DNA of 64,000 nt from Thermoplasmata archaeon (GCA_038851035.1 JAWCLH010000003.1:47511-111510), one strand, 5' to 3'; numbered from the stretch's first letter, positions 6,011 to 37,512 are shown. Numbers and translations are program-made. The notes: a model not told the origin generated them from the letters alone.

Positions 6011-6014
6011 TTGC

Positions 6015-9517: not shown

Positions 9518-10506
9518 TATTTCTTTTTTAGTTTTGCTCGTAGATCTTTTCTTTTTGTTTTTCTTTTTTTCAAAATTGAAATAATAAAATCAATACTGAT
9601 AGGAATAACTACAAGAATAACAATTGTTATAATTAATCCTCTAACACTAGTTTCTGGAAAAGTCTCAGAGCGATGACCCGTGACCCAAAGTTTGAAAAGA
9701 CCGAACCAAGGCAGTTCTCCTTCTGCTCTACCCACAATCCATTCGAGTTTAACAGGAGCTACTAAAGCTCCGTTCACTCTTAAAGATTCTTGGTCAACTT
9801 TTTGAATATTATGGTCTCCCTTTGTAAGAAAACCACTGTCTTGTTTTTGCGAAAAAATAACATTAAACGATATCGTCAAATCCTCTTTTCTATATCCTTG
9901 ATTTTTTATAGTATAAAATTTAACATTATACACATTAATATCTGGTATATCTCCTCTGATATCGTGAGTAGTCATGCATGAAGCGGTTCTATTGTACTCA
10001 ACCCATGCGATCGCGCGATGAATAACTGGAGTATCAGAGAGTCCGTTTTTTTTATATACTATCACATGACCGAAGTCTCCATAAGTCATAACACCATACT
10101 TAGGTGAAGTTCTACATGTGGCTTCTACATAAGTCACAATATCGTGTCGATTATTGATTTTTTTAACAAGAGTGAGATCCCCGGTATCAATAACGCCTAT
10201 TTGACTGTCATTTCCATGCATCATACTGCTGGATTCTATAACTACCATTGGCGGCCACACACCAGAATACATAAATAAAATGCCTAAAACAGAAAAGACT
10301 ATAATCGCAGATACAATGATATCCCTGACTAAACCATAAAAATATTCTTTATAACGAGATTTAGATTTCTTTTCTATCGTTTTATCTTCATTTAAATTAA
10401 ATAATTTTCTACGTCTTTTCTTGACGCTTTTATCATTTAATTTAGGATTAGAGCAGTGTTTAAGAAAATCATTAGATCCCCTCTTCATGCCTGCCCACTC
10501 CGCCAT
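9514..10506 (-). CDS. Signal peptidase I, archaeal/eukaryal Sec11-type (S26), with a large extra domain and a C-terminal TM
   Basis: N-terminal TM followed by VVIESSSMMHG (SGSMEP-like catalytic Ser box) and GVIDTGDLTLVKK (GDL box); 330 aa; AT-rich codon usage like cdc6. Confidence 0.6.
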   Translation of the reverse strand: MAEWAGMKRGSNDFLKHCSNPKLNDKSVKKRRRKLFNLNEDKTIEKKSKSRYKEYFYGLVRDIIVSAIIVFSVLGILFMYSGVWPPMVVIESSSMMHGNDSQIGVIDTGDLTLVKKINNRHDIVTYVEATCRTSPKYGVMTYGDFGHVIVYKKNGLSDTPVIHRAIAWVEYNRTASCMTTHDIRGDIPDINVYNVKFYTIKNQGYRKEDLTISFNVIFSQKQDSGFLTKGDHNIQKVDQESLRVNGALVAPVKLEWIVGRAEGELPWFGLFKLWVTGHRSETFPETSVRGLIITIVILVVIPISIDFIISILKKRKTKRKDLRAKLKKKY

Positions 10507-10771: not shown

Positions 10772-11074
10772 ATGGAGCTAGAGATTGACGCTCCCGTCGT
10801 CCTTGACACCCTCCGTAACCTTTATAAAGGGGCTATTCGGGGGTCGAGAGTTCTTGACGACATTATCCGCGCCCATAAGATAACATATGAGGAGGCGGTT
10901 GAAGTTCTTCATTTTCTATTGAAAAACCAATTAATTCTCAACATAGAAAAAAATAGAATCAATGGGGACGCAGTGTACAAACTAACAAGAAGAGGAGAGG
11001 TAGTCATTGAAGAAAGACTTTCTAGCCTCTACCACTCTAACCCCAAGGCCGGGGGTGTGGGGGGAGTGATATGA
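10772..11074 (+). CDS. Small winged-helix DNA-binding protein
   Basis: 100 aa with a wHTH-like core (ITYEEAVEVLHFLLKNQLI...YKLTRRGE); GC-rich codon usage resumes here. Confidence 0.45.
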   Translation: MELEIDAPVVLDTLRNLYKGAIRGSRVLDDIIRAHKITYEEAVEVLHFLLKNQLILNIEKNRINGDAVYKLTRRGEVVIEERLSSLYHSNPKAGGVGGVI

Positions 11075-11538
11075 GCGCTGAAGAGTCAATTTCAAAGAAC
11101 CCCGAGGTTGCGATGGAGCTCCTGACCGAACTATATTATGGCCCCAAGCGCTCATCCAGACTCGTCAAAATGATCATGCAGAGACTTAAGGTCTCTGAGC
11201 CAACAGTGTATGCCACCCTCCAAGAGCTTGTTGCCAAGGGGGCTCTGGAGAAGCAGGAGAGGAGTCGTCGGAGAGTAATATACCGACTTACGGACGAGGG
11301 CCGGCGTTTAATGGATAAGGAGCATTTCGAAGTTATAAACAGTCTTCTCTCCCGCCTCGGTAATCAGGGGCGTCGTAGGGAAATAATGGTAGAGCTCCTT
11401 ATATTAGATTTGCTCGAGGAGCTGCCAGAGGAGATGAGGCGCAGCATCAAGATGGAGGCTCTTCGAAGCAGTACAGCAATTGAATTCGAGGACATGCGCA
11501 AGCGGCTAGTCAGGATGGCGAGTGCCCTCTTTATCTGA
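11071..11538 (+). CDS. PadR-like winged-helix transcriptional regulator
   Basis: PTVYATLQELVAKGALEKQE...RRVIYRLTDEGRRL is the PadR-type recognition helix/wing; overlaps the upstream stop. Confidence 0.5.
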   Translation: MSAEESISKNPEVAMELLTELYYGPKRSSRLVKMIMQRLKVSEPTVYATLQELVAKGALEKQERSRRRVIYRLTDEGRRLMDKEHFEVINSLLSRLGNQGRRREIMVELLILDLLEELPEEMRRSIKMEALRSSTAIEFEDMRKRLVRMASALFI

Positions 11539-11638: not shown

Positions 11639-14600
11639 TTGGCGGAGATAAAAGGCTCCCGGGAGAGTAGCGCGAGAGATGCAATAGTCGAGGAGATGGA
11701 GCGGAGGCTATCGATTGGGAGGCCCACGCGCTTGGGAGAGGTTTCTAGGTCAGTGCTCGAGGCCATCGTCACTGTCTCGATAATCCCCGCCATTGCGATT
11801 ATCTGTGCGAAGTTGCCGATGCTCCAGGATCTCTGGTATGGCCATTTTGAGATATTCAACACGATGCTTCTGGTGCTCCTGCTCGCCGTGGCGGGAGCCG
11901 GTGCGTTTGTATTGCTATCCAACACGAAGCAGCTCTCGAGCAAGTGGTGGACAAGGTCGCTGGCGCTCGCCGCGGGCGGGGGATTGATAATCGGTCTCTC
12001 CCTACTACCTTCCGCCGGGTTCACCTATTTAAATGCTGTGCCATGGTGGGCACCGGCGATCCTGCTCATCGGCGCGGCCGTGGTCTGGGTGGCGAACTCT
12101 CTCATCAAAGAGAGGCTGGGCTTCTACAGCATCTGGTTCACGGGCCTTATTTTCCTGACCATAGTACCTCTTGAGGAGGCCCTCCTCAAGGGAGTCAGCG
12201 GAACCTACAGGTATGGCTCTTACGAGGGCGCTAGAATGAATATCATATTGGTGGGGCTGATATTTCTCTTCTTCGGGGTGCTTCTGTACGTTCGCGAGCG
12301 AAGGATGATCAAGAGGATAGATACCGAGCTAGCAAGAGGAGACGAGCTTGCCAAAGCGGGGAGGTATGACGAGGCCCTAAAGAGCTACGACAGGGCGATT
12401 CGGGCAGCCCACCTCCTCGCTCCGCCCTCCCATGTCGGGGAGGGCAAGAAAGCGCCCGTCGATGGCTACGAGACCCCCTGGCACGCCAAGGGGTTCGCAT
12501 TCATGAAGATGGGCCGCTACAGCGAAGCTGTCCCCTATCTCGACCTCGCGCTCGACGCCAACCCCGAGAACGAGGCGGTATGGATAAACCGTGGGAACGC
12601 CCTCTCCCGCCTTAAGCAGTTCGATAGCGCGATTCAAAGCTACACCGTGGCCCTGAAGCTCAACCCGAAGAGCGAGGCTGCATACAACAATCTAGGCTGG
12701 GCGCTCTATGCAAAGGATGATGTGGAGGGAGCTATCCGATGCTACGATGCCGCCATCGCCCTGAAGCCAGACTACTCGCAGGCGCTCTACAACAAGGGTT
12801 TGGCTCTCCTCAGGGCAAACAGGCTCGATGAGGCCGTATCAACTCTTGACAAGGCTCTCGCGGTCAAGGAGGCCCCGCTCAGCCCAGCCCAGCAGCTCGC
12901 TGCTAAACACGCCAAGGGCAACGCCCTCTACAGAATGCAGAAGCTGCCCGAGGCTGTCCAGGTCTTCGATGAGGTGCTGAGCCAGGTCCCGGACGTGTCC
13001 GTTTTTCTTCTCAAGGGCAACGCCCTGATGCTCCAGAGGAAATATTCCGAGGCCCTCACCCAGTACGAGAACGCCCTCCGCTATGACCCACGGAACGGCA
13101 GCGCCTGGAACAACCGTGGTAACGCCCTGTTGAACATGGACAAAAAGGAGGAGGCGATATACTGCTTCGACCAGGCAATAAAATTCGACCCCCAGAACGC
13201 AGAGCCTTGGAATAATAAGGGCATCGCGCTGAGCCGGCTGAACCGTCTTCCGGAAGCGCTGAAGTGCTTTGAAAAGGCTCTGGAACTCGACCCCCGGCAC
13301 CTTGATGCGATGTTGAACAAGGGCAATACCCTCTCGAAGCTTGGAAAGCACACCGAGGCCATAAAGTGCTTCGACCAGCTCCTCGCCCACGACCCAAACA
13401 ACGTGATAGCCCTGAATAACAAAGCCAACGCCTTGGCGCGCATGGGCAAGACTGAAGAGGCCCTCCAGGCTTACGACAGGGCGACAGCGCTCGCGCCGAA
13501 CTTCGAGCTCGCGCAGGTGAACAAGGGGAACACATTGATGGCCGTCGAGCGCTATGAGGAGGCCAAGAGGTGCTTCGAAAAGGCCCTGGAACTAAATCCG
13601 AAGAACGCCCACGCATGGTTCAGTCGTGGGAGCATACTGCAGAAGCTCAAAGCGTCTCCAGAAGAGGCTCTGAAAAACATAGACGCAGCCCTATCCCTCG
13701 ACCCGAAACATGTAGAAGCTTGGAACACCAGGGGCGATATACTACTTGAGGCGAAGAGGTTCGATGAGGCGATTCAGTGCTACGATACCGTCCTGAAGCT
13801 CCAGCCGGACAACGTCTCGGCCTGGTACCACAGGGGCAGTGCCCTCTCGCAGAAGGGGAACCACGCAGAGGCCATAGCCGCCCTTGACAAAGCCACCGAT
13901 CTGGACGAGGACTACATCGATGCCTGGAACCTAAAGGGGCATATCTGGCACACGCTGGGCGAGATGGAGAAGGCAATATTCAACTTCGACAAGGTTACCG
14001 AGCTAGACCCGGGACACGTCGAGGCCTGGGACAACAAGGGCGTTGCGTACTACTCAATGGGCAGAATTCACGACGCTATCAAGTGCTTCGAGAAGTGTGT
14101 GGCCATAGATCCCAGGTACGAGAAGGGCTGGTACAATATGGCTTCGGCCTACAGCTCGCAGGGCAAAGTCGAGGAGGCCCTGAAGTGCTATGAAAAGGCG
14201 ATTGAAATCAAGCCGGACTATGGGAAAGCCTGGAACAACATGGGCAACCTTCTTTATTCTATAGACAGGCTTGACGAGGCCCTCCGGTGCTTCGATCGCG
14301 CTCTCACCATCGACTCAACCTACGAGAAGGCCTGGAATAACAAAGGCAACATCCTGCTCACAAAAGGGCAGACGGAGGAGGCTCTGGCCTGCTTCAACCG
14401 CGCCCTAGAGCTCGACCCGAAGTACGTGAAGGCGTGGAACAACAAGGGGAGCGCCCTATTCAATTTGGGGAGAGTAGAGGAGTCGTTGGAGTGCTTTAGA
14501 GAGGCCTTGAAGCTGAAAAAGGACTACGACAAGGCTTGGTACAACGCCGGCGCGGCGCTGCACAAGATGGGCAAGTCGGAGGAGGCCATAGCCTGCTTCG

Positions 14601-17443
14601 ACAAGGCGATAGAGCTGAGGCCGAAGTACGACGAGGCATGGTACAACAAAGGCGCCGCCCTCTTCAAGCTCGGCCGGGTGAAGGAGGCGGTAGAGTGCTT
14701 TGAAGAAACGCTCAAGCTCAACCCTAGATTTGACGAGGCCTGGTACAATCTAGGCAATGCGAAGTACTATCTGGGCAGCACCCTGGAGGCCCTGAAGGCG
14801 CTCGACCGGGCGCTCGAGATAAACCCCGAGTATCAGGAAGCCATCCGAATTCGGACCGAGTGCCTCGAGACTTTGGAGAAGGCAGGAAGGATGTACGAGT
14901 ACTGGAGGGAGAAGGGCAACATTCTCGCGGAGGCGGGAAAGGACACGGAGGCCCTCACCTGTTACAACAAGGCTCTGGACCTAAAGAAGGACGACGACAG
15001 GACCTGGTTCTTCAAGGGGAAGCTGCAGGCTAAAATGGGGAGGCACGAGCAGGCCGTGCAGTCATTTGACAAGGTGCTGGCGATAAAACCTGACGACAGA
15101 GAGGCCTGGTACGGGAAGGCGGAGTCTCTGGTGGCCTCGGGAAGGGTGGCGGAGGCGATCATTTGCTACGACAAAGTGATCGAGCTCGACCCCCAGAACG
15201 AGCAGGCCTGGCTGAACAAAGGAATGGCGCTCATCAAGCTGGGCCGAATAGAAGACGGGATGCAGTGCTTCCAAAAGATGATCGAGCTCACGCCCGAGGA
15301 CCACCTGGGCTGGCACTACATGGGCCTCGGCCTTGCTGCGACGGGCAGAAAGGCAGACGCAGTCACCTACTTTTCCAGAGCGCTAGATCTGAACCCCAGC
15401 GCGCTCGACACGTGGTTCCAGAAGGGCCTAGCGCTCCGGGACCTAGGAAAAACTGACGAAGCGATCGCGGCTCTGAACAAGGTCGTTGAGCTGAAGCCTG
15501 AGCATTCCGAGGGCTGGACCGCTCTCGGCGAGCTGTTGATGAAAGCGGAGAAGTGGGAGGGTGCGAGCAAAGCCTTCGAGAAGGCGATCACTGCAAACGA
15601 GATGAACCCGCGGGCCTGGTTCGGAAAGGGAATGGTCCAGCTCAATCACGGCAACGCGCAGGCCGCTAGTGAGGCTCTTCAGAGGGCGCTAGAGCTGAAG
15701 CCGGACTTCGGCGAGGCCTGGAGCGGCATGGGGATGGCATACCTAAAGAGCGGGAACGCGGGGTCGGCGCTGGAGTGCTTCGAGAAGGCGGTGAAGCTTG
15801 CGCCGGGCTACGCGGAGGGCTGGTCCGGCTACGGCAGCGCGCTCTTTGCGCTAGGCCGCCTGGACGAGGCTATCAAGGCCTTTGACACCGCCATATCCAT
15901 CAACCCGAACTTCGAGAAGGCCTGGGCCAACAAGGCGACGGCATTGGTCAAAGCCGGCAAGGCTCCGATGGCTTTAATAGCACTTGACAAGGCGACTGAG
16001 ATAAAGCCGGATTATGAGAAGGCCTGGGCGGACAAGGGCAATGTGCTCCTTTCTCTGGGAAGAACGGAGGACGCCTTGGCGGCCTTCAACCGGGCGCTGA
16101 CGCTCAACCCCCGCAGCGACAAGACCTGGCTAGCGGTCGGTCAGGCCCTCCAGACTATGGGCAAGCACAAGGAGGCGGTGGCGGCCCTCGATAAGGCTAT
16201 AGGAATCAAGCCGGAGAGCGAACGAGCGTGGCTCGAGAAGGGGAACGCCCTCCAGGCGATGGGGAACCACGACGCTGCCATTCAGGCCTACAATCGAGCG
16301 CTGGAGCTGAAGCCTGACAACGCAAAGGCTTGGCTGGGGCGGGGCCTTGCCTACGCCGACCTTACGGAGTACGGGGACGCGCTCAAGAGCCTCGAGAAGG
16401 CCCTCGAGCTGAAGCCTGAGGACGACAGGGTCTGGATGGAGAGAGGAAAAGTTCTGATGGCGATGGAGCGGTATGATGAGGCCGCGACGAGCCTTGCGAA
16501 GGCAATAGAGCTGAACAGAGCAAACGCTCAGGCCTGGTTCCTGAGCGCAACGCTGCTGGCGAAGCAGGGAATGGCCGAGGATGCGATCGCCGCGCTCAAT
16601 CAGGCGCTCGAGGCTGACCCCGCCCATGCCGATGCGCTCCTGGAAAAGGCGAAGCTCGCGATGCAGCTCCGTAGGGGAGACGAGGCTCTGAAGGCCCTGT
16701 ACAGGTTCGTGGAGGTGAGGAAGGAGAGCGCCGAGGGCTGGCTTCTTCTGGGCGCAGCGCTCTACGAGAATGGGCAGAGGGAGGAGGCGCTGGGGGCGCT
16801 GGACAGGGTGGTCCAACTAGACACAAGCCATGCCCGCGCTTGGGCGCTACGTGGCAAGATACTACAGGAACTCGAGAGGAGCGAAGAGGCCCTGAAGTCC
16901 TTCGAGAGGGCTGCGGAGCTCGAGCCAGACATGGAGGAGGCATGGCTCGGCATGGCCGACATACAAACTCGGGCTGGAAAGGCTGAGGAGGCGGTCCGGA
17001 CGCTGAAGAAGGCGCTGGACAGGAACCCGAAGAGCGAAAGGGCATGGCTGGCGACCGCGGTGGCACTGAGGAAGCTGGGTCGTGTGAAGGACGCGATGAA
17101 GTGCGTAGAGCGGGTTCTCAAAATAAATCCGCGCAACGAGAGGGCTATAGAAATGAGGGAGCTGCTCGAGAGCGAGGAGGAGGAGGCTGGCGGGGCGGGG
17201 CCCGAGGCAGCTCCCACGGTGCCCGAGCCTGCGCCCACTACAAGCAAGGAGGGCCGCGAGAGGAGCGGCCCCGCGGCCCCAGAGCCATCAGGGCCTGTGG
17301 CTGCGGGGGAGGCCCAAAGGCGTGAGGGAACAGGAGCCTCGTCGCCATCGGCTGGACCTGGAGCCGTTCAGGCCGCCCCCGGCCCGCGCGGGGCCGATGT
17401 GAGAGACGATTTCGAGAGCATCGAGACTGTGGAGATGGAGTGA
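11639..17443 (+). CDS. Giant membrane-anchored TPR protein (N-terminal ~6 TM helices, ~45 TPR units, Glu/Pro/Ala-rich low-complexity C-tail), 1934 aa
   Basis: N-terminal hydrophobic helices (IIPAIAIICAKL, LLVLLLAVAGAGAFVLL, LIIGLSLLP, ILLIGAAVVWV, IFLTIVPL, IILVGLIFLFFGVLLYV). These are followed by an uninterrupted series of 34-aa W-x2-G-x2-L / A-x3-Y / A-x6-P TPR repeats. Confidence 0.85.
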   Translation: MAEIKGSRESSARDAIVEEMERRLSIGRPTRLGEVSRSVLEAIVTVSIIPAIAIICAKLPMLQDLWYGHFEIFNTMLLVLLLAVAGAGAFVLLSNTKQLSSKWWTRSLALAAGGGLIIGLSLLPSAGFTYLNAVPWWAPAILLIGAAVVWVANSLIKERLGFYSIWFTGLIFLTIVPLEEALLKGVSGTYRYGSYEGARMNIILVGLIFLFFGVLLYVRERRMIKRIDTELARGDELAKAGRYDEALKSYDRAIRAAHLLAPPSHVGEGKKAPVDGYETPWHAKGFAFMKMGRYSEAVPYLDLALDANPENEAVWINRGNALSRLKQFDSAIQSYTVALKLNPKSEAAYNNLGWALYAKDDVEGAIRCYDAAIALKPDYSQALYNKGLALLRANRLDEAVSTLDKALAVKEAPLSPAQQLAAKHAKGNALYRMQKLPEAVQVFDEVLSQVPDVSVFLLKGNALMLQRKYSEALTQYENALRYDPRNGSAWNNRGNALLNMDKKEEAIYCFDQAIKFDPQNAEPWNNKGIALSRLNRLPEALKCFEKALELDPRHLDAMLNKGNTLSKLGKHTEAIKCFDQLLAHDPNNVIALNNKANALARMGKTEEALQAYDRATALAPNFELAQVNKGNTLMAVERYEEAKRCFEKALELNPKNAHAWFSRGSILQKLKASPEEALKNIDAALSLDPKHVEAWNTRGDILLEAKRFDEAIQCYDTVLKLQPDNVSAWYHRGSALSQKGNHAEAIAALDKATDLDEDYIDAWNLKGHIWHTLGEMEKAIFNFDKVTELDPGHVEAWDNKGVAYYSMGRIHDAIKCFEKCVAIDPRYEKGWYNMASAYSSQGKVEEALKCYEKAIEIKPDYGKAWNNMGNLLYSIDRLDEALRCFDRALTIDSTYEKAWNNKGNILLTKGQTEEALACFNRALELDPKYVKAWNNKGSALFNLGRVEESLECFREALKLKKDYDKAWYNAGAALHKMGKSEEAIACFDKAIELRPKYDEAWYNKGAALFKLGRVKEAVECFEETLKLNPRFDEAWYNLGNAKYYLGSTLEALKALDRALEINPEYQEAIRIRTECLETLEKAGRMYEYWREKGNILAEAGKDTEALTCYNKALDLKKDDDRTWFFKGKLQAKMGRHEQAVQSFDKVLAIKPDDREAWYGKAESLVASGRVAEAIICYDKVIELDPQNEQAWLNKGMALIKLGRIEDGMQCFQKMIELTPEDHLGWHYMGLGLAATGRKADAVTYFSRALDLNPSALDTWFQKGLALRDLGKTDEAIAALNKVVELKPEHSEGWTALGELLMKAEKWEGASKAFEKAITANEMNPRAWFGKGMVQLNHGNAQAASEALQRALELKPDFGEAWSGMGMAYLKSGNAGSALECFEKAVKLAPGYAEGWSGYGSALFALGRLDEAIKAFDTAISINPNFEKAWANKATALVKAGKAPMALIALDKATEIKPDYEKAWADKGNVLLSLGRTEDALAAFNRALTLNPRSDKTWLAVGQALQTMGKHKEAVAALDKAIGIKPESERAWLEKGNALQAMGNHDAAIQAYNRALELKPDNAKAWLGRGLAYADLTEYGDALKSLEKALELKPEDDRVWMERGKVLMAMERYDEAATSLAKAIELNRANAQAWFLSATLLAKQGMAEDAIAALNQALEADPAHADALLEKAKLAMQLRRGDEALKALYRFVEVRKESAEGWLLLGAALYENGQREEALGALDRVVQLDTSHARAWALRGKILQELERSEEALKSFERAAELEPDMEEAWLGMADIQTRAGKAEEAVRTLKKALDRNPKSERAWLATAVALRKLGRVKDAMKCVERVLKINPRNERAIEMRELLESEEEEAGGAGPEAAPTVPEPAPTTSKEGRERSGPAAPEPSGPVAAGEAQRREGTGASSPSAGPGAVQAAPGPRGADVRDDFESIETVEME

Positions 17444-17570
17444 GGATGTGCGCTGAAAGACCGGATGTGGGCGAAGAGGGGGAAGCCGGAGGCCCCCGGG
17501 GAACCGAAGGCTTTAAAGCCCACACAGCGGTAATGGCGAATTCCCCACTAGGAACAATGGGGGAGCGCAG

Positions 17571-20500
17571 GTGAGAGGGAGACTAGTAAGGTGGTGGACA
17601 CTCGGGCTCATGCCAGTTCTGCAGGCCCAGCCCCCGGACTTTGATGGAGAGGAGCCGCCGCCCCAGAGAAGGGAGCAACCTCCTCCGGAGGGACATGACG
17701 ATTTCGAGGAGGTGCCGCCCCCTCCCCCCGGCGGGCCGGCTGAGAAGGCAACCTCTCCCCCATCTGGACCGGTACCGGCGCCCGCGGGGCCTGCAGAATT
17801 CGAGGAGGCTCCACCGCCGGCCCCCGGCCAGTCCGGAGCCCCAGCCCCGGAGAGTCCTGAAGAGTTACCGCCCTCTCCTCCTCCGCCCCAGCCGGCCGCG
17901 CCCGGGGAACCTGTGGAGTTCGAGGAAGCGCCTTCACGTCCCCCAGCGCCCGAAGCGTCCATGGAGTTCACGGAGGCTCCGGGTCCCGGTCCCTCGAGAG
18001 AAGCTCCACCACCCGAGGAGTTCGAGGAGGCCCCGGCCCCCGGACCTCCCGAGCAACCCGCAGTCCCTCCGCCGGAAGCTCCCTCCCCGGCAGTCACCCC
18101 CAGGGGCCCCGAGGAGGCTCTACCGGGCGAGCCGGAGGTATTCGAAGTGAAGGCCGAGGAGGCGCCGCCGGTTTCGCTCAGGACCGCCCCGCCGGCCGAG
18201 GCCGAGGCCCCCGAGACCAGACCGGCCGCCCGGAGGAGGGCGGGCATGGTCAATGGCCGGGGGCTCGTCAACGCCCGCGGGAGGGCCAACGGCCTCGTCA
18301 ATGGTCGGGGGCTGGTCAACGCGAGGGGCAGGACAAACGGCCTTGTCAATGGCCGTGGATTGGTCAATGCGCGCGGAGCGACGAACGGCCTCGTCAACGG
18401 CCGCAGGAGGGGGCTGGTCAACGGCGCGAGCCTCGTCAACGGCCGGAGGCGGAGGGGTCTGGTAAACGGTGGCGGCCTGATAAACGGTGAGGGTGTTATC
18501 AACGGCCGGGGGCTGGTCAACGGCAAGGGCCTGATAAACGGCCGCGGTCTGACCAACGGAAGGCAGCTCGTTGCGGCGGAGACCGTGCCCAGCCGCCCCA
18601 GGCCGCGGAAGAGGCTGATGATGGCCGCTCTCGCGGTCGCCATCGCCCTCCTGATAATCATCCCGATATTTTATATAGTGCAGGTGGAGAAGGGCATAGC
18701 GATAGACGGCATCTTCGCCGACTGGAGCGGCGTGAGCAACAAGTACAACGACGGCGGCGCCTCGCCCGTGCCATCGACGGACAACAATGTCGACATCGAC
18801 ATGTTCGGAGCGAGCGCGAGCGATACCGACCTATCCTTCTATCTGAAGGTCGCGGGACAGGTGCTGAAGGGCGCGGGCAACGGGGTTGATACACTTACTA
18901 TTTTCATAGACAAAGACCACGACGGTAACGGCTATCTGGTCAATAGCCCCGGAGGGGTCATCCACGCTGACCTGAAGCTCGAGGTCTTCGGCTGGGACGG
19001 ACTCGTCAAGTCCGCCTCATATTCGAAATTCGAGGGAGCCAACCCGAACGACTACTCCGGCTGGAAGAGCCTCGGGGCGGCGAGGGCAGCGGTCTCCGGG
19101 AGCGAGCTCGAGGCGCAGGTCTGGTTCAGGGATACGGGTATGTCCCGGAACTCCGAGGTCAGCATCCTGTTCTACCTGCGCGACTCGAACGGCGAGGAGG
19201 ACTACTCCGACTTTACGATAGGAATGAGCACCGGCGTCCTTAGCGTCAGGCAGAGGGAGCCGAGCCTTGGGGGTGGAGGAGGGAGCCTTGTTCTCGACCT
19301 GACCGCGCACGCCCGTACAATCAATGTGACATCGATAACGGTCACGCGTTTCGGGAGCGGGGGAGGGGGGATGCTCCAGCTCAGCGGGCCCGGAGGGCTT
19401 GAGAGGACGGCCTCATTCGCGGGCACGGGGAGCCTGACAGGCTTCGTCCTGACGGTCGAGAGAGACCGGACGGTCTCGGTCACGCTCTACGCGAGCGGTA
19501 TGAGCGGCGTATTTGGAATGGGCCTGGCATCGCCCACGGCGGTCACGGCCAGCACGAACGGCCGCACCGTCCACGTGTCGGTCTCGGGCTACTCAACGGC
19601 GCTCGTCAATCTCGCCGGTGGTGTGCCCGGAGGAATTATCATAGACGGGGCCTTCGAGGACTGGGACGCCACCCGCGGGAGCGCCGGGTACCGCTCCCGG
19701 CTGGACAGGAGCGACGATGTACAGCAGTCCGGGAGGGTCGGGACGCCGGGGCTCATTGACAGGGGCGGGCTGGCCTATTACCCAAACGACAACATCAACC
19801 TGCAGGAGGTGGCCGAGTACGACTCCGGAGGCGGGCCCCTCTATTTCTATGCCAGAGTCGCCGGGAAGGCGATGGCGGGCCAGCCGGTTCCGGCGACGAG
19901 GCGCGGGACGCCGGGGCCCTCCGGACCTCCATCTCCACCGAAGGAGCTGAAGCTCGTGGGCTCGGACGCTTTTTACGTTCTGATAGATGACGATGGCAAC
20001 AAAAACACCGGCTACCCGCTCTACACGGAGGACGGGGACCTCCTGATCGGAGCGAGGTACTGCGCCGTGGCGATAGGGAAGAACGGAGTGGTGCTAGAGG
20101 TCAGGACCTTCGTGTACGACGGCGGCTGGCGCGAGGGGGGCTTCTCAGCCACCGCGGCCTCGGGGGGGAAGAGGATAGAGCTCTCCGCGTCGGGCATCGC
20201 GGCCCTCGTGGCCCACAGGACCATCATAATAGCGGAGGACTGGACCTGCAACGCCGACCGGAGCGACGCGCCGCTCGTCGGCGCCGGGAGGAGCGGGGGA
20301 GAGCCGACGCTCATAGTCAACGAGGTGGATATTGCGAAGCACGTGATAAGAATCGGCTCCTCGAACAACCCGCTCTTCAGAATCGAGCTGGAGGCGCTCA
20401 ACGGAGAGGTCGAGGTCAGCGGAATCGAGCTCCAGAGGGACGGAACCGCCCCGGATGAGGATATCTGCCTCGTTCGCCTGATGCAGGACGCCGACGGCGA

Positions 20501-21314
20501 CTGGGAGCTGACGGTGGGAGACCGGGAGCTCGCGGCGACGGTATTTGTCAATGGAAGCGCTAACTTCACCCTCGCGCCGCCCGTCGTCGTCAGGCCGGGG
20601 GAGATTGTGGTCCTAATCGTGGCGATTGACGTTAGGGAGGGGGCGGGGGAGTATGGTAGATTTGGGGCGGGGATAAAGAGGGTGGAGAGCAGCGGAGTCG
20701 AAGTGGATACTATTATCGAGAGCGAGACGAGAGATGTCGTATTTGTCAAAACGAATGGAAGATGGCAATCACTGACAGCATGTGTAATTAATGAGATAAA
20801 AAAGAAAAGTAGTGGTTACGAAGTTGAATGGATTGAAATTCTTAATAAATCAGGAAATAAGATTTCAGATTGGAAAATTTCAGAATCTCTCGGATCATGG
20901 AGCATATCTATTACTTTAGAAAATGGAGAATGTAAATATTATGCAATCGGCGAAGATATTGTATATTGGAAAAAAGATTCTACTTACAATACAATTTATT
21001 TGTATGATAATAATAATAATTTGAAAGATTCAAAAACTCTTTCTGAATTAACAGAAGGTGCCTATTCAATGGCTCGTTATAGAGATGCAGATGAAAATCC
21101 CACGGATGAATGGTATGATGAGAATGAGCCTACACCTGGAAATAAAAATGATTTAATCCCCGAGTTCCAAGATATTATCTATCCACTCGCCGGCCTTATT
21201 GCTGTAATCGTCGTAATCCGCGCCGCAGGCCGGGGGCGCACCGGGGGTATGAGGCGCATGAAGAGTGGAGCGGAGAAGACGATCCGCGCGCGGAGGCGGA
21301 CCAGCGAGCTCTAA
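17571..21314 (+). CDS. Large surface protein: Pro/Glu-rich N-region with EFEEAP repeats, (G)LVNGRG tandem repeats, single TM, extracellular DG-F-DW domains, C-terminal lamin-tail-like module and hydrophobic/Arg-rich anchor (PGF-CTERM-like)
   Basis: Repeats NGLVNGRGLVNARG at 18243-18570; TM LMMAALAVAIALLIIIPIFYI; motif IIIDGAFEDWD appears twice; C-terminal PLAGLIAVIVVIRAAGRGR. It is paralogous to the gene at 35041-37512. Confidence 0.8.
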   Translation: MRGRLVRWWTLGLMPVLQAQPPDFDGEEPPPQRREQPPPEGHDDFEEVPPPPPGGPAEKATSPPSGPVPAPAGPAEFEEAPPPAPGQSGAPAPESPEELPPSPPPPQPAAPGEPVEFEEAPSRPPAPEASMEFTEAPGPGPSREAPPPEEFEEAPAPGPPEQPAVPPPEAPSPAVTPRGPEEALPGEPEVFEVKAEEAPPVSLRTAPPAEAEAPETRPAARRRAGMVNGRGLVNARGRANGLVNGRGLVNARGRTNGLVNGRGLVNARGATNGLVNGRRRGLVNGASLVNGRRRRGLVNGGGLINGEGVINGRGLVNGKGLINGRGLTNGRQLVAAETVPSRPRPRKRLMMAALAVAIALLIIIPIFYIVQVEKGIAIDGIFADWSGVSNKYNDGGASPVPSTDNNVDIDMFGASASDTDLSFYLKVAGQVLKGAGNGVDTLTIFIDKDHDGNGYLVNSPGGVIHADLKLEVFGWDGLVKSASYSKFEGANPNDYSGWKSLGAARAAVSGSELEAQVWFRDTGMSRNSEVSILFYLRDSNGEEDYSDFTIGMSTGVLSVRQREPSLGGGGGSLVLDLTAHARTINVTSITVTRFGSGGGGMLQLSGPGGLERTASFAGTGSLTGFVLTVERDRTVSVTLYASGMSGVFGMGLASPTAVTASTNGRTVHVSVSGYSTALVNLAGGVPGGIIIDGAFEDWDATRGSAGYRSRLDRSDDVQQSGRVGTPGLIDRGGLAYYPNDNINLQEVAEYDSGGGPLYFYARVAGKAMAGQPVPATRRGTPGPSGPPSPPKELKLVGSDAFYVLIDDDGNKNTGYPLYTEDGDLLIGARYCAVAIGKNGVVLEVRTFVYDGGWREGGFSATAASGGKRIELSASGIAALVAHRTIIIAEDWTCNADRSDAPLVGAGRSGGEPTLIVNEVDIAKHVIRIGSSNNPLFRIELEALNGEVEVSGIELQRDGTAPDEDICLVRLMQDADGDWELTVGDRELAATVFVNGSANFTLAPPVVVRPGEIVVLIVAIDVREGAGEYGRFGAGIKRVESSGVEVDTIIESETRDVVFVKTNGRWQSLTACVINEIKKKSSGYEVEWIEILNKSGNKISDWKISESLGSWSISITLENGECKYYAIGEDIVYWKKDSTYNTIYLYDNNNNLKDSKTLSELTEGAYSMARYRDADENPTDEWYDENEPTPGNKNDLIPEFQDIIYPLAGLIAVIVVIRAAGRGRTGGMRRMKSGAEKTIRARRRTSEL
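18243..18570 (+). repeat. Coding tandem repeat (18-nt unit, ggcctcgtcaacggccg-like) encoding (G)LVNGRG/LVNARG units
   Basis: About 18 consecutive imperfect copies of ctcgtcaacggccgnggg visible directly in the sequence. Confidence 0.8.
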
Positions 21315-21755: not shown

Positions 21756-21968
21756 CGCCCAGACCCGGACTATCTAGATGCTTAGGGGTAAATGAAGTTA
21801 TCTGGGAACAGCCCGGAGCGTCTGGAGGCAAGTCGCTGGAGTAGGAAGCAAGGAGGCAACGGTCTCTATCCATCCGGAATAATCGAAAAGGGGGATGAGT
21901 TGGGAGAAGTTTCGGAGTTCGCCGGAGGCGGTCGATGGAGCCTCCGGCAGCGGTGGCAAAATGGAAAA

Positions 21969-31930: not shown

Positions 31931-32620
31931 ATGGGCGAGATCGGTCTGATAAGAATCAAGTCTGGGATCCACGGGCTCGATGAGATGATGGAGGGCGGGT
32001 TCGCCTTCCCTTCTACAGTGCTCGTTGCCGGAAGCGCTGGAACGGGGAAGACTACGTTCGCCCTCCAGTTCCTAAGCCAGGGCGCGAGGGAGGGAGAGCA
32101 GGGAATCTTTTTCACCACTTTGAGCGAGCCCACGCAATGGATGCTGAGGTTCGTCTCTCGATTCAGCTTTTTGGACAAAGACACCTTCGGCAAGCAGATA
32201 AAGTACGTCGACCTCGGACCGTTCCTCAGGGAGCAGAGGGACCCCGCGGCTATGCTCAAGTTCATAGACGACCAGATCGCCGAGCACATGCCCCAGAGAA
32301 TCGTTATCGACCCCGTCTCAGTCATAGGAGGAATGATCAAGGGGGACTACAGGATGTTCCTATACGACCTGACCACCCACCTGAAGAACTGGCAGGCCGT
32401 GTCCATACTGACGGGTGAGGTCCTGCCCAACGAGCCCTACCCGGTCGAGATATCGTACATCGTGGACACGGTCATCATCCTGAGTCTCGGCCTCACCCCC
32501 GAGGGTGCGCGCAGGAAGTACTGCGAGATTCTCAAGATGCGCGGCACCACTCACGCGACGGGCCAGCACCTGATGGACATATCGAGAGACGGAATAACGG
32601 TCACGATGGGGCTGAAGTAG
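31931..32620 (+). CDS. Single-domain KaiC/RecA-like ATPase with intact Walker A and B
   Basis: GIHGLDEMMEGGFAFPSTVLVAGSAGTGKTTFALQFL (Walker A at ~32030-32053), RIVIDPVSVI (Walker B), ILKMRGTTH; 229 aa. Confidence 0.8.
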   Translation: MGEIGLIRIKSGIHGLDEMMEGGFAFPSTVLVAGSAGTGKTTFALQFLSQGAREGEQGIFFTTLSEPTQWMLRFVSRFSFLDKDTFGKQIKYVDLGPFLREQRDPAAMLKFIDDQIAEHMPQRIVIDPVSVIGGMIKGDYRMFLYDLTTHLKNWQAVSILTGEVLPNEPYPVEISYIVDTVIILSLGLTPEGARRKYCEILKMRGTTHATGQHLMDISRDGITVTMGLK

Positions 32621-33306: not shown

Positions 33307-34362
33307 TTGCAGCCCGCGCTACATCCTGACGAATCACTCCTGGAGGTCGCGGAGCTCGCGGCCCGGGGCAGGAGGTGGGAGGAGGCTCTCTCGCTCCTCG
33401 ACAGGGTTCTTGAGGCTGCACCTGCGCTGGAGCGCGCCCACATCCTTCGATGCGGAATTCTAAGGGCCCTCGACCGCCGGAGCGAGGCCGTCGCCTCGGC
33501 CGAGGCCTTCGCTTCCGCGCTCCCCGGCTCGGCGAGAGCCCACCACGAGCTGGGGGTGTGCCTGAGCGCCGCGGGCAGGTATGAGGAGAGCGTGGAAGCC
33601 TTCAGGAGGGCACTGGAGCTTGACCCGAAACTGCTCGAGGCCTGGAAATGGATGGGAATCGCTCTGGGTAGGATGGGAAGGCTCGAGGAGGCCTTCCGGT
33701 GCTACGAGCGGGCCAGTGGCAGGGCGCCGGAGCTGAGCGTTCCCGTGCCGTCCGGGCCCGCGCCATCCGGGCTCGAGACAAGAATTCACGAGCTGATGAC
33801 CGGAATGATGGAAAAGGGCGGCGGTTGCGTGCGGGTCGAGACAGACCCCGCACTCACCTTTAGGACTAGCGTCCTTCTTCTCTCGATTCTTCTCAGGGAC
33901 TGGGACATGGACGGCGTCCTGGTTTCGCTTGGCAGGCCCGCGGACGTCTACCGGAGAGCGCTTGCCGCTAGGGTTCACACCCGCCACCCCCCACACTTCG
34001 TCGAGGTGGTGGCGGGCGGACCCTCGCCCGAGGCCGAGGGGGCACGGGAGTGGGTCACAAGCCTCTCCGCCTTCGAGCCCGATAGGATAGACGCCGCAGT
34101 CAGGGCGGGGCTCCAGAAGGTCGCGGAGATGTACGGCGGGGAGGAGCACTTCGTCATCATAGACGATATAACAGCGATGGAATTCTACAACGGGCGCGAG
34201 GTCGTGAGGAGGTTCGTCGCGGGCTTCTTGGGGGAGCTGTCGTTGCTCAACATCTTCTGCTTCGTAGTTGTTCCCACGAGAAGAGCGCTGGAGCTGCTTG
34301 GGCTCCTTCCCTTTTTCTGTCGAGAGAGAATTTGCGTGAGGGCGGAGTGGCTTCGCGAGTGA
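33307..34362 (+). CDS. TPR-repeat N-domain fused to degenerate KaiC/RecA-like paralog 5
   Basis: N-terminal TPR units (ALSLLDRVLEAAPALERAHILRCGIL..., AHHELGVCLSAAGRYEESVEAFRRALELDPKLLEAWKWMGIALGRMGRLEEAFRCYERA), then LLLSILLRDWDMDGVLVSLGRPADVYRRAL...FVIIDDITAMEFYNGREVVRRFVAGFLGELSLLNIFCFVVVPT. Confidence 0.6.
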   Translation: MQPALHPDESLLEVAELAARGRRWEEALSLLDRVLEAAPALERAHILRCGILRALDRRSEAVASAEAFASALPGSARAHHELGVCLSAAGRYEESVEAFRRALELDPKLLEAWKWMGIALGRMGRLEEAFRCYERASGRAPELSVPVPSGPAPSGLETRIHELMTGMMEKGGGCVRVETDPALTFRTSVLLLSILLRDWDMDGVLVSLGRPADVYRRALAARVHTRHPPHFVEVVAGGPSPEAEGAREWVTSLSAFEPDRIDAAVRAGLQKVAEMYGGEEHFVIIDDITAMEFYNGREVVRRFVAGFLGELSLLNIFCFVVVPTRRALELLGLLPFFCRERICVRAEWLRE

Positions 34363-35040: not shown

Positions 35041-37512
35041 ATGGTCGGAGAGAGAGGCGAGGAGAAATTGGGTGATAGGGAGGAAGATGGGCTGGAGGGG
35101 AGAGCCGGAGGAGAAGAGGATGCGACCACTGATGGGTGTCCGGGGGAACAGGAGAGCGTCCTGAGGCCCGTGCCCCCTCCTGAGAGAATTCAGGAGATTG
35201 AGATGGAGGAAGCGGAGGCCGTGGAGGTGGAAGAGGACATTGCAGAGGTCGAGCAGGCGAAGGGTGAGGAGGCCTTTAGGAAGAGCGAGGGGGCGATGGA
35301 GACAGGTGCCGGCTCCCCCGGAACACCCTTGGGTGGGGCTGAAGGACCGGTTGAGATTCCGGGCGACAGGAGGGGTGAGAGGGGCCGGAGCAATGGGCTT
35401 CTGAACAGGAGGGCCCTGACCAACGGTCGGAGCATAGTCAACGGCAACGGCCTAGTCAACGGCGCCAAAACGGGTTTAATAAACGGTGGAAAAAGGGGCG
35501 CAATCAACGGCCGAGGCATCGTCAATGACAAGGGAATCACTAACGGGAGCGATACAGGAGTGGTCGAGGCCCCGCCCCGCAGGCTCACTAAGAAGGGGCC
35601 CTTAGCCGCACTGGCCATCATCGTTGCCTTGGTTCTCATCACCGTCTCATATTACGCCCTCCTCTCGACCGAGAGAGGAGTAAGGGTCGACGGCGGGTTC
35701 TCGGACTGGACCCCCTTCCTCAAGTACCACGACGAGGCCGGCGACCAGCGGAATGCTGACATCGACATCACACAACTCGCGCTGGCCGTGGAGGACTCAT
35801 CGGTCTCGCTCTATGTACGAGTTGGGGGGAGGGTCCTGGCTGGAAGGGACGGCGGTGTGGACATGTTCTGCTTCTTTTTCGACACGGACAGGAACCCAGC
35901 CACGGGATATCCCGCGCCAAGCGTCGGGGCGGAGTATGTTCTCGTCGTGGACGGATACGATGGACGCGTCTCGGCCTGCGGGCTTTACAGGTTCGGGGGG
36001 GCGGGGCGGTCCATTAGCGACTGGAACTCGAGGACCCCCGTCGGTTCCGCAAGAGCGGCCGCCTCCGGGGCCGAACTCGAGGCCCAAGTCGCTCTCTCGG
36101 ACCTCGGGCTCCGACCTGGCTCCGGGCCGAACGTCCAGACCCTAGCGCGGCACAGCGGGGGCGGGGAGGACATCGGGCCGGTCGTCGGGACGGGGCGGGC
36201 CGCGCTTACGGCGGTCTGGGCCCGCGTCGGTCCCGTCTCCGTCCCTCCTGGCAAGGCGGGTGTGCCTCTGCTCAGGGTGGAGCTCAGGGCTCAAGGGGGC
36301 TCCGTGAGGGTCTCATCGCTACGGGTGTCCGTGAACGAGGGAACAGGGGCGCGCGACATCAGCCGGCTCTCGCTGATGACCGCCTCTGGTGCGGAGGTGC
36401 CCGGGGCATCGGCCCCAATTGCAAATGGGTCGGCGCTGCTCGCCCCTGGGAGCCCCTTGGAGCTCAGGCGCGGCGAGTCGATGAACCTCACAGTGGTGGC
36501 CTGGATAGCCTTTGAGGCGGAGAGGGGTCGGGCGGTCGGGCTCTCGCTCGAAGGGCCGCAGAGCATCATCTCCAGCGCGGACACCGTGATGGTGGAGGGC
36601 CGCGGGGGGAATCTGACGCAAATCGGAGAGCAGGCGCAGCCCGGTCGAATCATCATTGATGGAGCGTTTCAGGACTGGGAGGGCATCCCGGGCCACCCAG
36701 ACCCCATCGGCGACGCGACCAACCCTTCCGTGGACCTCAGGGACTTCAGGGTGACCAACGACTCAGCCTCACTCTTTCTCTACGCCGCTGTTGACGGAGA
36801 GATAATGGCGGGCGCGTGGGTGCCGGAGACGAAGCAGAGGCCACAGCCAGGAGGCGGGGGCGGTGGCGGCGTGCCCGCGCCCCTCCCCGAGCTGACGGGA
36901 GAGGACGCCCTCTTTGTGTTCCTCGACATCGATGGTCTCTCTGAGACAGGCTACGCAGGCGAGGGGGCTCCGCCGGGAGCGGATTATCTGGTCAAAATAA
37001 CTGGTCGGGGTGGGAAAATAACATCCCACCTCGTTATGCCCTTCACGGGTGGGGCGGACCGGAGCCAGTGGAGCTGGGGCAGGGGGACGGAGCTCCCCGC
37101 CGCGGCGGGCGGGACCGGAATCGAGCTAGCCGTGGCATTGGAAACCATCGAGAGCCCAGTGGGAGTGGTCTCCCTGTTCTATTACATGACCGGCTGGGGC
37201 CAGAGCCGGGATGCCGGGACGGAAATCGAGTACAGCCTTAGCGGCGGGGGATGGGGGAGGGGAGCCGGCGCCGGCGACCCGCCGGGGGCCGGGCCGGGCC
37301 TTGGGTCGCCAGAGGGTTCGGGCGATGAGCCCCTTCACGCCCCTGAGTTCGGTGAGCTTCTCCTGCCTATAGCAGGAGTCATCGGCATATTCGCAGGAGC
37401 CAGAGGAGCGAGACGGAGGAACGCGCGCGTCCGAAGGGGAGAAAAAAGGAATGATGGAGCGGTGACCGTGGCGTTCTCCGTTGAGGGGGCGTTGAGGGAA
37501 TGGTCTGGCTGA
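35041..37512 (+). CDS. Surface protein, paralog of 17571-21314: acidic N-region, (G)LVNG/INGRG repeats, TM, extracellular DG-F-DW domains, C-terminal hydrophobic + Arg-rich anchor
   Basis: GLLNRRALTNGRSIVNGNGLVNGAKTGLINGGKRGAINGRGIVNDKGITNG; TM LAALAIIVALVLITVSYYALL; RVDGGFSDWTP and IIIDGAFQDWEG; C-terminal LLLPIAGVIGIFAGARGARRRN. Confidence 0.75.
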   Translation: MVGERGEEKLGDREEDGLEGRAGGEEDATTDGCPGEQESVLRPVPPPERIQEIEMEEAEAVEVEEDIAEVEQAKGEEAFRKSEGAMETGAGSPGTPLGGAEGPVEIPGDRRGERGRSNGLLNRRALTNGRSIVNGNGLVNGAKTGLINGGKRGAINGRGIVNDKGITNGSDTGVVEAPPRRLTKKGPLAALAIIVALVLITVSYYALLSTERGVRVDGGFSDWTPFLKYHDEAGDQRNADIDITQLALAVEDSSVSLYVRVGGRVLAGRDGGVDMFCFFFDTDRNPATGYPAPSVGAEYVLVVDGYDGRVSACGLYRFGGAGRSISDWNSRTPVGSARAAASGAELEAQVALSDLGLRPGSGPNVQTLARHSGGGEDIGPVVGTGRAALTAVWARVGPVSVPPGKAGVPLLRVELRAQGGSVRVSSLRVSVNEGTGARDISRLSLMTASGAEVPGASAPIANGSALLAPGSPLELRRGESMNLTVVAWIAFEAERGRAVGLSLEGPQSIISSADTVMVEGRGGNLTQIGEQAQPGRIIIDGAFQDWEGIPGHPDPIGDATNPSVDLRDFRVTNDSASLFLYAAVDGEIMAGAWVPETKQRPQPGGGGGGGVPAPLPELTGEDALFVFLDIDGLSETGYAGEGAPPGADYLVKITGRGGKITSHLVMPFTGGADRSQWSWGRGTELPAAAGGTGIELAVALETIESPVGVVSLFYYMTGWGQSRDAGTEIEYSLSGGGWGRGAGAGDPPGAGPGLGSPEGSGDEPLHAPEFGELLLPIAGVIGIFAGARGARRRNARVRRGEKRNDGAVTVAFSVEGALREWSG

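Follow-up and report, generated by a model that had tools for sequence, protein, structure and literature searches.

Multi-domain surface proteins with a sorting-like signal at the C-terminus are already familiar from archaea, and the ectodomain folds discussed below are known as well. The Thermoplasmatota, including the Methanomassiliicoccales of gut and sediment, are abundant and mostly uncultured archaea whose cell envelopes are poorly understood. Two further strands of earlier work bear on what follows. Namely, PMC9723798 names ArtC as the enzyme specific for the PEF-CTERM signal, while DUF835, or iKaiC, is described as an inactivated KaiC-like domain that occurs in archaeal signal-transduction architectures (PMC5847659). 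Here, we analyze two plus-strand open reading frames (ORFs), which we call P1 and P2, in 64 kb of DNA from Thermoplasmata archaeon (64,000 nucleotides, GCA_038851035.1, JAWCLH010000003.1:47511-111510, G+C content 57.6%), referred to throughout as the window. What is new in these proteins is a conserved cytoplasmic array of Asn-Gly (NG) repeats, strictly coupled to a transmembrane (TM) helix and to the first of two CBM9-like modules; new also are the size of the family, its restriction to one phylum and its two conserved gene triads. The reading we favor, to which we would assign a probability of about one half, is that the array is an extended, largely unstructured and positively charged juxtamembrane tether, which would present the N-terminal module, or the array itself, to cytoplasmic scaffolds and would in this way couple the surface layer to the cytoplasm. 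The parts of the two proteins on which this reading leans are the following.

17571..21314 (+): P1 coding sequence, 1247 residues, an ORF found at exactly these coordinates
18246..18563 (+): P1 basic NG array (residues 226-331), 18 units of the form [L/R/M][V/T/I]-N-[G/A] with R/G spacers of 0-4 residues
18564..18614 (+): P1 basic linker from the last NG to the TM helix (RQLVAAETVPSRPRPRKR), of a distance and charge seen family-wide
18615..18686 (+): P1 predicted signal-anchor TM helix (residues 349-372, or from 346), N-terminus inside, hydropathy 2.94, a helix also in the AlphaFold 2 (AF2) model
35041..37512 (+): P2 coding sequence, 823 residues, with the architecture of P1 but without its lamin-tail-like domain (LTD)
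35386..35547 (+): P2 NG array (residues 116-169), approximately 9-10 units
35599..35664 (+): P2 TM helix (about residues 187-208), from hydropathy on the near-identical protein P0032 and aligned with the P1 TM helix

An initial annotation of the window, made before any database search, had described the two genes as paralogs of the same architecture, and the alignment bears this out: P1 and P2 are 32% identical over 641 residues (E 9e-50), from the array into the second ectodomain module. As ectodomain modules 1 and 2 also match each other in the P1/P2 comparison (E 7e-7 and 3e-6), we take the two proteins to be paralogs with an internal duplication. Their common order of domains is an acidic N-terminal region, the basic NG array, the TM helix, two pairs of a CBM9/DOMON-like and an immunoglobulin (Ig)-like domain and, finally, a PEF motif followed by a TM helix and an Arg-rich tail. 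P1 is 98% identical to the NCBI 'hypothetical protein' QXH42_02125 from a metagenome-assembled genome (MAG) of Thermoplasmata archaeon, and P2 approximately 95% identical to QXH42_02190 (P0032) from the same MAG.

What, then, defines the array? In P1, it comprises 18 N-[G/A] units (15 NG and 3 NA) of 4, 6, 7 or 8 residues, and the net charge over residues 226-348 is +22. For the family at large, repeat statistics were compiled from 111 homologs with a recognizable TM helix followed by a DGxFxDW motif, and charges were counted in 94 homologs. The 160 residues before the TM helix contain a median of 13 N[GA] dipeptides (range 4-26), as compared with 1.3 per 160 residues in the rest of the protein. 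The spacing from one Asn to the next is 4 in 572 cases, 6 in 461, 2 in 142 and 8 in 53, as against 14, 34 and 11 cases for the odd values 5, 7 and 9, respectively; over all spacings up to 12, there are 1288 even and 86 odd ones. In percentages, the core tetrapeptide has the profile [L56/R16/M10]-[V53/T28/I16]-N-G, and the hexapeptide form is this same core with [R45/K13]-[G93] in front. In other words, L-V-N-G-R-G can be read as one frequent phasing of a four-residue unit with an optional two-residue insert, and the 'hexapeptide' of the initial annotation has to be replaced by this shorter core with its optional [RK]-G. The copy numbers given there come out too high, and 18-25 repeats does not hold for P2 with its smaller array. 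Between the last NG and the TM helix lies a Pro- and Arg/Lys-rich linker with a median length of 22 residues (10-90% range 18-27), and the arrays themselves are net positive in 85 of the 94 proteins.

The DNA of the P1 array contains recent internal tandem duplications, namely of 48 nt (3.2 copies, 79% match), which corresponds to a 16-residue super-repeat, and of 18/36 nt (3 copies, approximately 71%), at 18249-18403 and 18455-18563. Since array length also differs among close orthologs (13-18 units; 4 to 27 over the family), the array apparently evolves by gain and loss of units. One could argue on these grounds, and from the fact that AF2 sees no structure here, that the array is neutral low-complexity sequence generated by replication slippage, given that any basic stretch satisfies the positive-inside rule. 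We consider this highly improbable. Namely, the codons for Asn and Gly and the flanking residues vary between units, N and G themselves are invariant, and the pattern survives across very divergent homologs, which points to selection on the array at the level of the peptide, beyond mere slippage. Moreover, few residues are allowed before N, the array keeps a fixed distance from the TM helix, and a separate basic linker already provides the positive-inside signal. Finally, virtually all members of the family (at least 857 clusters at 50% identity) have the array, across Methanomassiliicoccales, DHVE2 and other Thermoplasmatota labels.

This last point deserves to be documented. A homology search with residues 215-1247 of P1 retrieved 166 proteins, and all of the named ones come from Thermoplasmata, Thermoplasmatota or 'Euryarchaeota archaeon' MAGs; in 115 of the 120 homologs listed, the array stands just before the first TM helix. 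A profile search of 1.84 billion cluster representatives (clusters at 50% identity) gave 3920 matches at E≤1e-3, 1694 at E≤1e-10 and 857 at E≤1e-30. Among further representatives, at least five N[GA] dipeptides precede the TM helix within 130 residues in 95 of the 97 evaluable proteins, and the other two have four. The pair of paralogs in the window is thus real, but to speak of two falls well short of a family that counts hundreds to thousands of proteins in Thermoplasmatota. The initial annotation had also proposed looking for the array in other archaea, and it is indeed found beyond this genome: a scan of GTDB, with one genome per species and a degenerate DNA pattern for G-L-[VIM]-N-G-x-G-L-x-N-G, gave at least 120 loci, and about 64-70 of those listed are true arrays, by which we mean at least four NG units with a TM helix 30-60 residues downstream and then an ectodomain of the P1/P2 type (in some loci with the variant motifs IDHNFSEW or VDGSAGDW). 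Among the matches listed, true arrays occur only in MAGs labeled Thermoplasmata, Thermoplasmatota, Methanomassiliicoccales, DHVE2, 'Methanobacteriota archaeon', 'Euryarchaeota archaeon' or unclassified 'archaeon', with several genomes having 2-4 array loci each. Bacterial matches to the pattern (Pantoea, Erwinia, Mixta and others) are due to chance, with two NG only, in short ORFs without a TM helix. As all true arrays are in Thermoplasmatota-type MAGs and the bacterial matches are chance or unrelated, the array, the TM helix and the first ectodomain module form a strictly coupled unit, found among the matches listed in Thermoplasmatota only.

A few bacterial ORFs do contain superficially similar repeats rich in Gly, Asn and Leu. 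These are L022, from a Dehalococcoidia MAG (OZ253486.1, about 1,031,800-1,032,000; repeat GLVNGLGLVRDLGFVNG), L050 (repeat GGFRNGGGWVNG) and L057. None has a TM helix or a CBM9-like domain following the repeat, and we do not regard them as the same thing.

On which side of the membrane does the array lie? The linker before the TM helix is net positive in 93 of the 94 homologs, and the 30 residues after it are net zero or negative in all 94. What is more, relatives carry domains of cytoplasmic type N-terminal of the array: in P0041, an HhH domain (12-60), a double Zn-ribbon (76-142) and TPRs (220-360); in P0014, a KaiC ATPase (499-733); in P0028, approximately 400 residues of TPR; and in P0009, Zn-ribbons. 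Surface-type domains, such as LTD, DUF11 and DUF7507, come after the TM helix. An N-in topology is supported by this charge bias together with the distribution of domains, and it would make the array cytoplasmic and juxtamembrane, just as the initial annotation had concluded from the positive-inside rule. The single TM helix which it had placed directly after the array is likewise there, as a strongly hydrophobic helix in both P1 and P2.

The opposite case, raised by the same annotation, would be a secreted N-terminal region. Judging by hydropathy, with an h-region of about 10-15 hydrophobic residues within the first 30 taken as the mark of a signal peptide, we found no convincing one in P1, where the maximum 15-residue hydropathy in residues 1-30 is 0.99 (residues 5-19), and none in P2, where the N-terminus is highly charged; together with the cytoplasmic fusions in relatives, this speaks against secretion. 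The weakly hydrophobic stretch of P1 may even precede the true start of the protein, which is ambiguous. Namely, GTG at 17571 gives the 1247-residue length of the near-identical NCBI protein. Alternatively, ATG at 17610 (M14) has GGTGG 13 nt upstream, and the sequence MPVLQAQPPDF starting from M14 is conserved in the ortholog P0004; the true start may be this one. A Tat-type signal anchor, suggested by the Arg-rich linker, was rejected, as a twin-Arg is not consistently present in the linkers.

The fusions also bear on the nature of the array. Namely, HhH and Zn-ribbon domains are common in relatives, and the array could be a polyanion-binding region of the RG/RGG type, with affinity for nucleic acid or acidic lipid, which in combination with such domains would tether DNA or RNA to the membrane. 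The Arg- or Lys-containing insert that precedes the core of the hexapeptide units agrees with this idea, and so does the positive charge of most arrays. However, Arg is scarce in many arrays, which consist of Leu-type tetrapeptides (L 56% at position 1), conservation falls on N and G and not on R, and nucleic-acid-related genes are not consistently found nearby. We judge polyanion binding very unlikely: given which residues are conserved, and given that hardly any member of this very large and old family is without the array, neither it nor neutral slippage fits as well as the tether.

Is the array a repeat that is already known? Pfam and NCBIfam were scanned with full proteins and with five isolated arrays, and assignment to a known repeat family was rejected, with all matches (Bflower_2, Yae1_N, TrAA12, Bactofilin, FliH) being sub-threshold and driven by composition. 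In particular, Bflower_2 (the 5-fold beta-flower, PF21785) scores between 14.7 and 16.7 bits (E between 0.028 and 0.0068), where 38 bits would be required. The deca-GX3 family Yae1_N (PF09811) has its best score, 24.1 bits with a cut-off of 27.5, on the P0039 array only, a near-match owing to the recurrence of G every 4 residues. Within Pfam, Hexapep and Pentapeptide gave no match at E≤10 on the five arrays, and Bactofilin matched at E 2.3. The left-handed beta-helix hexapeptide repeat, which has the profile [LIV]-[GAED]-X2-[STAV]-X and a regular 6-residue period (18 residues per coil), was rejected on the grounds that array spacing mixes 4 and 6, that AF2 builds no such helix and that Hexapep does not match. 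A homology search of a 5.8-billion-protein database with the array alone gave 4 matches, in a setting where the E-value penalty for low complexity makes the search weak. No description of the array was found in the searchable literature by motif strings, by 'NG repeat' or among Thermoplasmatota surface proteins; the only NG repeats that turned up there, in the mollusc shell protein pearlin and in the tails of Volvox channelrhodopsin, are unrelated. More generally, the family is described in neither Pfam, NCBIfam nor that literature, and its ectodomain core and repeat match no Pfam or NCBIfam model. The earlier opinion that the array belongs to no recognized class of repeats therefore stands.

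Structure prediction was carried out in two parts. AF2 model 1 (residues 215-700, 45-sequence alignment) has a mean predicted local distance difference test score (pLDDT) of 76, with the array appearing as coil at 36-41, the TM helix (model residues 132-158) at 85-95 and the ectodomain above 90. Model 2 (residues 686-1247) has a mean pLDDT of 83. The coil is what one would expect of a tether. That said, the array could instead form regular beta-structure, such as an Asn-ladder beta-solenoid or a cross-beta zipper with N-G type I' turns, built from one or several protomers and yielding a sub-membrane lattice that matches a lattice of ectodomains. N-G is the classic dipeptide of type I' beta-turns, even Asn spacings dominate, and some 95% of units have a beta-branched residue (V, T or I) just ahead of N; the 16-residue super-repeat of P1 and the weak resemblance to Bactofilin and Bflower_2 point the same way. 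Apart from the coil predicted by AF2, the difficulty with such an ordered array is that the number of units and their lengths (4, 6, 7, 8) differ freely even among closely related orthologs, which ill fits a fixed rung length, and the Pfam matches are far under their cut-offs. On balance, we find it rather unlikely that the array is built in this way.

In contrast to the array, the stretch N-terminal of it is variable across the family, with acidic low-complexity tails in the window and Zn-ribbons, HhH, TPR or KaiC domains in relatives. In P1, it reads as follows.

17571..18245 (+): acidic Pro/Glu-rich cytoplasmic region of P1 (residues 1-225), probably disordered, assigned by composition and motif positions

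The composition of residues 21-225 (32% Pro, 18% Glu, net charge -29) is in line with the acidic, Pro-rich region first reported. The number of EFEEAP units, given as eight, comes out lower in our count, at five clean E-F-E-E-A-P-type motifs (residues 43-49, 75-81, 115-121, 131-137 and 149-155) and one degenerate copy, EVFEVKAEEAP. In the P1 orthologs P0003 and P0004, which are approximately 50% identical to P1, the (P)EEFEEAP motif is kept in about 8 copies. This conservation and greater number suggest that EFEEAP may be a short linear motif under selection, and not noise. A strict regular expression matched P1 alone, with no EFEEAP-like motif in the tails encoded by neighboring genes. An antisense ORF of 382 residues, rich in Pro, Leu, Arg and Thr (17513-18661, minus strand), lies over the acidic region and the NG array; we rejected it as a gene because the plus-strand frame runs on into a conserved, confidently folded ectodomain, and it only mirrors the G+C-rich repeats of the coding strand. 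Immediately downstream of P1, a gene (21792-26348, plus strand) codes for 1518 residues in a mirror-image layout of P1, with FG-GAP, Big_9 and cadherin-like domains outside, followed by a TM helix and a cytoplasmic tail rich in Pro and Glu, and with a CxxC...CxxC zinc ribbon at the C-terminus. Surface proteins of this genome thus have acidic, Pro-rich tails in the cytoplasm more than once.

What might the cytoplasmic part be in contact with? The following genes of the window are of interest in this respect.

11071..11538 (+): PadR-like winged-helix regulator (Pfam PadR, E 2.7e-8), first gene of a PadR/giant TPR/NG triad
11639..17443 (+): giant membrane-anchored TPR protein, 1934 residues, six predicted N-terminal TM helices and tens of TPRs, directly upstream of P1
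27920..29578 (-): DUF835 protein (inactivated KaiC-like domain) near P2 (Pfam DUF835, E 3.1e-15)
31931..32620 (+): stand-alone KaiC-like ATPase upstream of P2 (Pfam KaiC, E 3e-39)
33307..34362 (+): TPR protein of 351 residues between the KaiC-like gene and P2 (Pfam TPR_1, E 1.2e-16)

The order PadR, giant TPR, NG gene recurs upstream of P0003 on an unrelated metagenome contig (L125, 1879-11784), where the TPR protein has 1905 residues and is 68% identical to that of the window, and upstream of the distant member P0037 (L122, 4963-12640; L122/L123), with a TPR protein of 1504 residues and 39% identity including the TM region. By its position, the giant TPR protein is a candidate cytoplasmic partner of P1. 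A second triad emerges from 64 array-bearing GTDB loci, each delimited arbitrarily and no longer than 8 kb. In 24 of the 64, a stand-alone KaiC-like ATPase of about 290 residues lies upstream of the NG gene on the same strand, and in 25 the gap of 700-860 nt between the KaiC-like and NG genes holds a double winged helix-turn-helix (wHTH) protein of about 237 residues (HTH_24, HTH_20, TrmB, MarR). The loci with this KaiC-like/double-wHTH/NG triad are listed here.

L004, L007, L009, L013-L016, L021, L028, L031, L034, L036, L045: KaiC-like/double-wHTH/NG triad
L062, L074, L076, L087, L088, L090-L092, L110, L112: the same triad
L088, as an example: 3377-4288, gap, 5098-7998

A third paralog, P0013, from the MAG of QXH42_02125, is flanked by KaiC-like genes and has a DUF835 protein of 1329 residues directly upstream. 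Taken together, synteny and fusions suggest a connection of the cytoplasmic tails with TPR, KaiC-like and winged-helix proteins. Two PAS-domain proteins (26421-27824, minus strand, and 37816-39423, plus strand), one of them with a MetOD1 'methanogen output domain', flank the region, which, with its KaiC-like, DUF835 and TPR genes, is accordingly rich in signal transduction. Further out, two adjacent FtsZ paralogs (Tubulin and FtsZ_C; 39528-40637 and 40773-41900, plus strand) lie 2 kb downstream of P2, and an Orc1/Cdc6 gene (8237-9517, plus strand) lies 2 kb upstream of the PadR/TPR/P1 block.

TPR domains bind short acidic or extended peptides, and one can imagine the array, or the EFEEAP motifs in P1, as a repetitive linear ligand lying along the groove of a TPR superhelix, either that of the giant protein upstream or one fused in cis, so that the surface protein would be tethered to a scaffold. 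In particular, the giant TPR/NG synteny is kept over three levels of divergence, and in P0028 and P0041 TPRs directly precede the array in the same chain. P0037 is informative here, as the 135 residues of its cytoplasmic part consist of two NG arrays only and would therefore offer nothing else to bind, while in P1 orthologs it is EFEEAP that is conserved and multiplied. On the other hand, many members of the family are without a fused or neighboring TPR gene in the DNA at hand, and EFEEAP is confined to the P1 clade. As a general account of the array, a TPR ligand therefore strikes us as quite doubtful.

On the outer side, structure prediction of the domains opening with the DG-F-DW motif, which the initial annotation had recommended, gave the following picture.

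18687..19229 (+): P1 module 1, CBM9/DOMON-like beta-sandwich (residues 373-553), opening with IAIDGIFADW
19230..19625 (+): Ig/cohesin-like beta-sandwich 1 (residues 554-685)
19626..20285 (+): P1 module 2, CBM9/DOMON-like sandwich (residues 686-905), opening with IIIDGAFEDW
20286..20765 (+): beta-sandwich domain 2 (residues 906-1065), AF2 strands at model residues 228-374, with generic Ig, Calx-beta and cohesin matches
20766..21140 (+): lamin-tail-like domain (residues about 1066-1190), Pfam LTD E 9.7e-4
21141..21311 (+): P1 C-terminal PEF (residues 1197-1199), TM helix (about 1200-1224) and Arg-rich tail
37336..37440 (+): P2 C-terminal PEF (residues 768-770), hydrophobic helix and RGARRRNARVRR

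The duplication of the IIIDGAFxDW motif noted at the outset is present in both proteins, as two copies of I-x-[IV]-D-G-x-F-x-D-W each (P1, residues 376-385 and 689-698; P2, residues 214-223 and 537-546). AF2 arranges the chain of P1 as a beta-sandwich, an Ig-like sandwich, two further sandwiches, an LTD-like sandwich and a long C-terminal helix. Similar folds are the CBM9 of T. maritima Xyn10A (PDB 1i82), the gamma subunit of ethylbenzene dehydrogenase (2ivf_C), the putative carbohydrate-binding protein 4jpq_B from Bacteroides, glucodextranase (1ulv) and NxrC (7b04_C), with identities to the ectodomain of only 12-15%. The predicted modules thus have a CBM9/DOMON-like beta-sandwich fold, a similarity at the level of fold only, and binding of sugars by them would be only a guess. 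Sequence profiles do not place them in the CBM9 or DOMON families: there is no Pfam CBM9_1 or DOMON match for P1 or P2 at E≤1, and no sequence match in the PDB.

Two features of the C-terminal half had been overlooked initially. The first is the lamin-tail-like domain of P1, which scores 19.9 bits (E 9.7e-4) with Pfam LTD (PF00932), below the cut-off of 34.3; at the homologous position, the relatives P0009 (42.5 bits) and P0041 (36 bits) are above it, and the orthologs P0003 and P0005 carry PF00932 as a precomputed annotation. The second is the C-terminus of both proteins, where PEF, a hydrophobic helix and a basic cluster near the C-terminus make up the tripartite PEF-CTERM layout; the end of the chain hence resembles an archaeosortase sorting signal of this type, going by its sequence. 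PEF is nearly invariant in alignments A1 and A2 (39-45 homologs), and in P1 the helix spans residues 515-539 of AF2 model 2, with the tail RGRTGGMRR. A 330-residue ORF near the surface-protein cluster (9514-10506, minus strand) resembles archaeal signal peptidase I weakly and below threshold (TIGR02228, 22.7 bits, cut-off 51.85).

How would the pieces work together? In the reading we favor, the basic NG array would fix the N-in topology and lie along the anionic inner face of the membrane, from where it would make the variable N-terminal module, and perhaps its own repeats, accessible to partners in the cytoplasm. These would be TPR scaffolds and KaiC-like ATPases, which are either part of the same chain or encoded by adjacent genes alongside a winged-helix regulator, and a protein of the P1/P2 type would in this manner couple an extracellular layer that binds glycans or other ligands to cytoplasmic scaffolding or signaling. 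That said, several observations weigh against the tether. Most importantly, a purely floppy one would not obviously need either the almost always even Asn spacing or the beta-branched residue before N-G. Low AF2 confidence is no proof of disorder, and the repeat alignment fed to AF2 is unreliable. The gene neighborhoods are not uniform either: this window contains no homolog of the double-wHTH gene found in the KaiC triad, and the P0079 locus is without a TPR or KaiC gene. Finally, on the outer side, no archaeosortase is among the scanned ORFs of the window, and C-terminal pieces of 65 and 75 residues gave no match at E≤10 to the NCBIfam/TIGRFAM hidden Markov model of PEF-CTERM, short-domain models such as this one being easily lost to HMMER filters.

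As a simple mark in the sequence, the array can help to annotate hundreds of giant proteins now labeled 'hypothetical'. Being obligatory, set at a constant distance from the TM helix and tied by synteny and fusion to TPR, KaiC-like and wHTH proteins, it also offers a concrete route to the connection between surface and cytoplasm in these archaea. If docking to TPRs or assembly into a lattice were true, the array would be a new class of functional juxtamembrane repeat and not a passive linker; if it were only a basic spacer, a useful definition of the family would remain, without mechanistic surprise. Taking a bolder step, one could see the array, TM helix and CBM9/DOMON-like module as the core of an undescribed transmembrane coupling system of Thermoplasmatota, with the array as a docking element, through a TPR groove or a beta-lattice, tied to the triads with KaiC-like and winged-helix proteins. 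We put this forward as speculation with the odds well against it.

It is instructive to compare the family with what has been described before. As low-complexity sequence rich in Asn and Gly, the array recalls the NG repeats of the mollusc shell-matrix proteins pearlin, N16 and N14 and the Asn-Gly/Met-Gly repeats of Volvox channelrhodopsin, the latter being, like the array, in the cytoplasmic part of a membrane protein. However, those are simple eukaryotic dipeptide runs with no hydrophobic or beta-branched positions, no fixed distance to a TM helix and no homology to the array. With the beta-helix hexapeptide, pentapeptide repeats and bactofilin, it shares a short period (4-6) with Gly and aliphatic residues, but its unit length is mixed where theirs is regular, and AF2 builds no solenoid from it. 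The R-G dipeptides bring RGG boxes to mind, except that the invariant residues are N and G and not R-G-G. As regards the surroundings, the KaiC-like, DUF835, PAS and wHTH proteins encoded around the NG family or fused to it are those of the archaeal KaiC-like 'signal-transduction hub' neighborhoods (Makarova, Galperin & Koonin 2017, as cited in PMC5847659); the searchable literature on the hubs, which does not extend to Makarova et al. 2017 itself, describes no membrane partner with an NG array and CBM9-like modules. On the outside, the fold of the modules is that of the CBM9/DOMON superfamily, whose sequence membership they do not share. Like LTD surface proteins of bacteria and archaea, P1 has an LTD-like beta-sandwich near its C-terminus, but this domain, sub-threshold in P1 and absent from P2, is not a defining part of the NG-array family. 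The closest parallel at the C-terminus is with the PEF-CTERM/ArtC substrates (Haft et al. 2012, as cited in PMC9723798), which have in common with P1 and P2 the P-E-F, the helix and the Arg cluster. The chain of P1 and P2 runs about 20 residues beyond this cluster and, where canonical substrates begin with an N-terminal signal peptide, P1 and P2 instead have a long, presumably cytoplasmic N-terminus and a signal-anchor TM helix.

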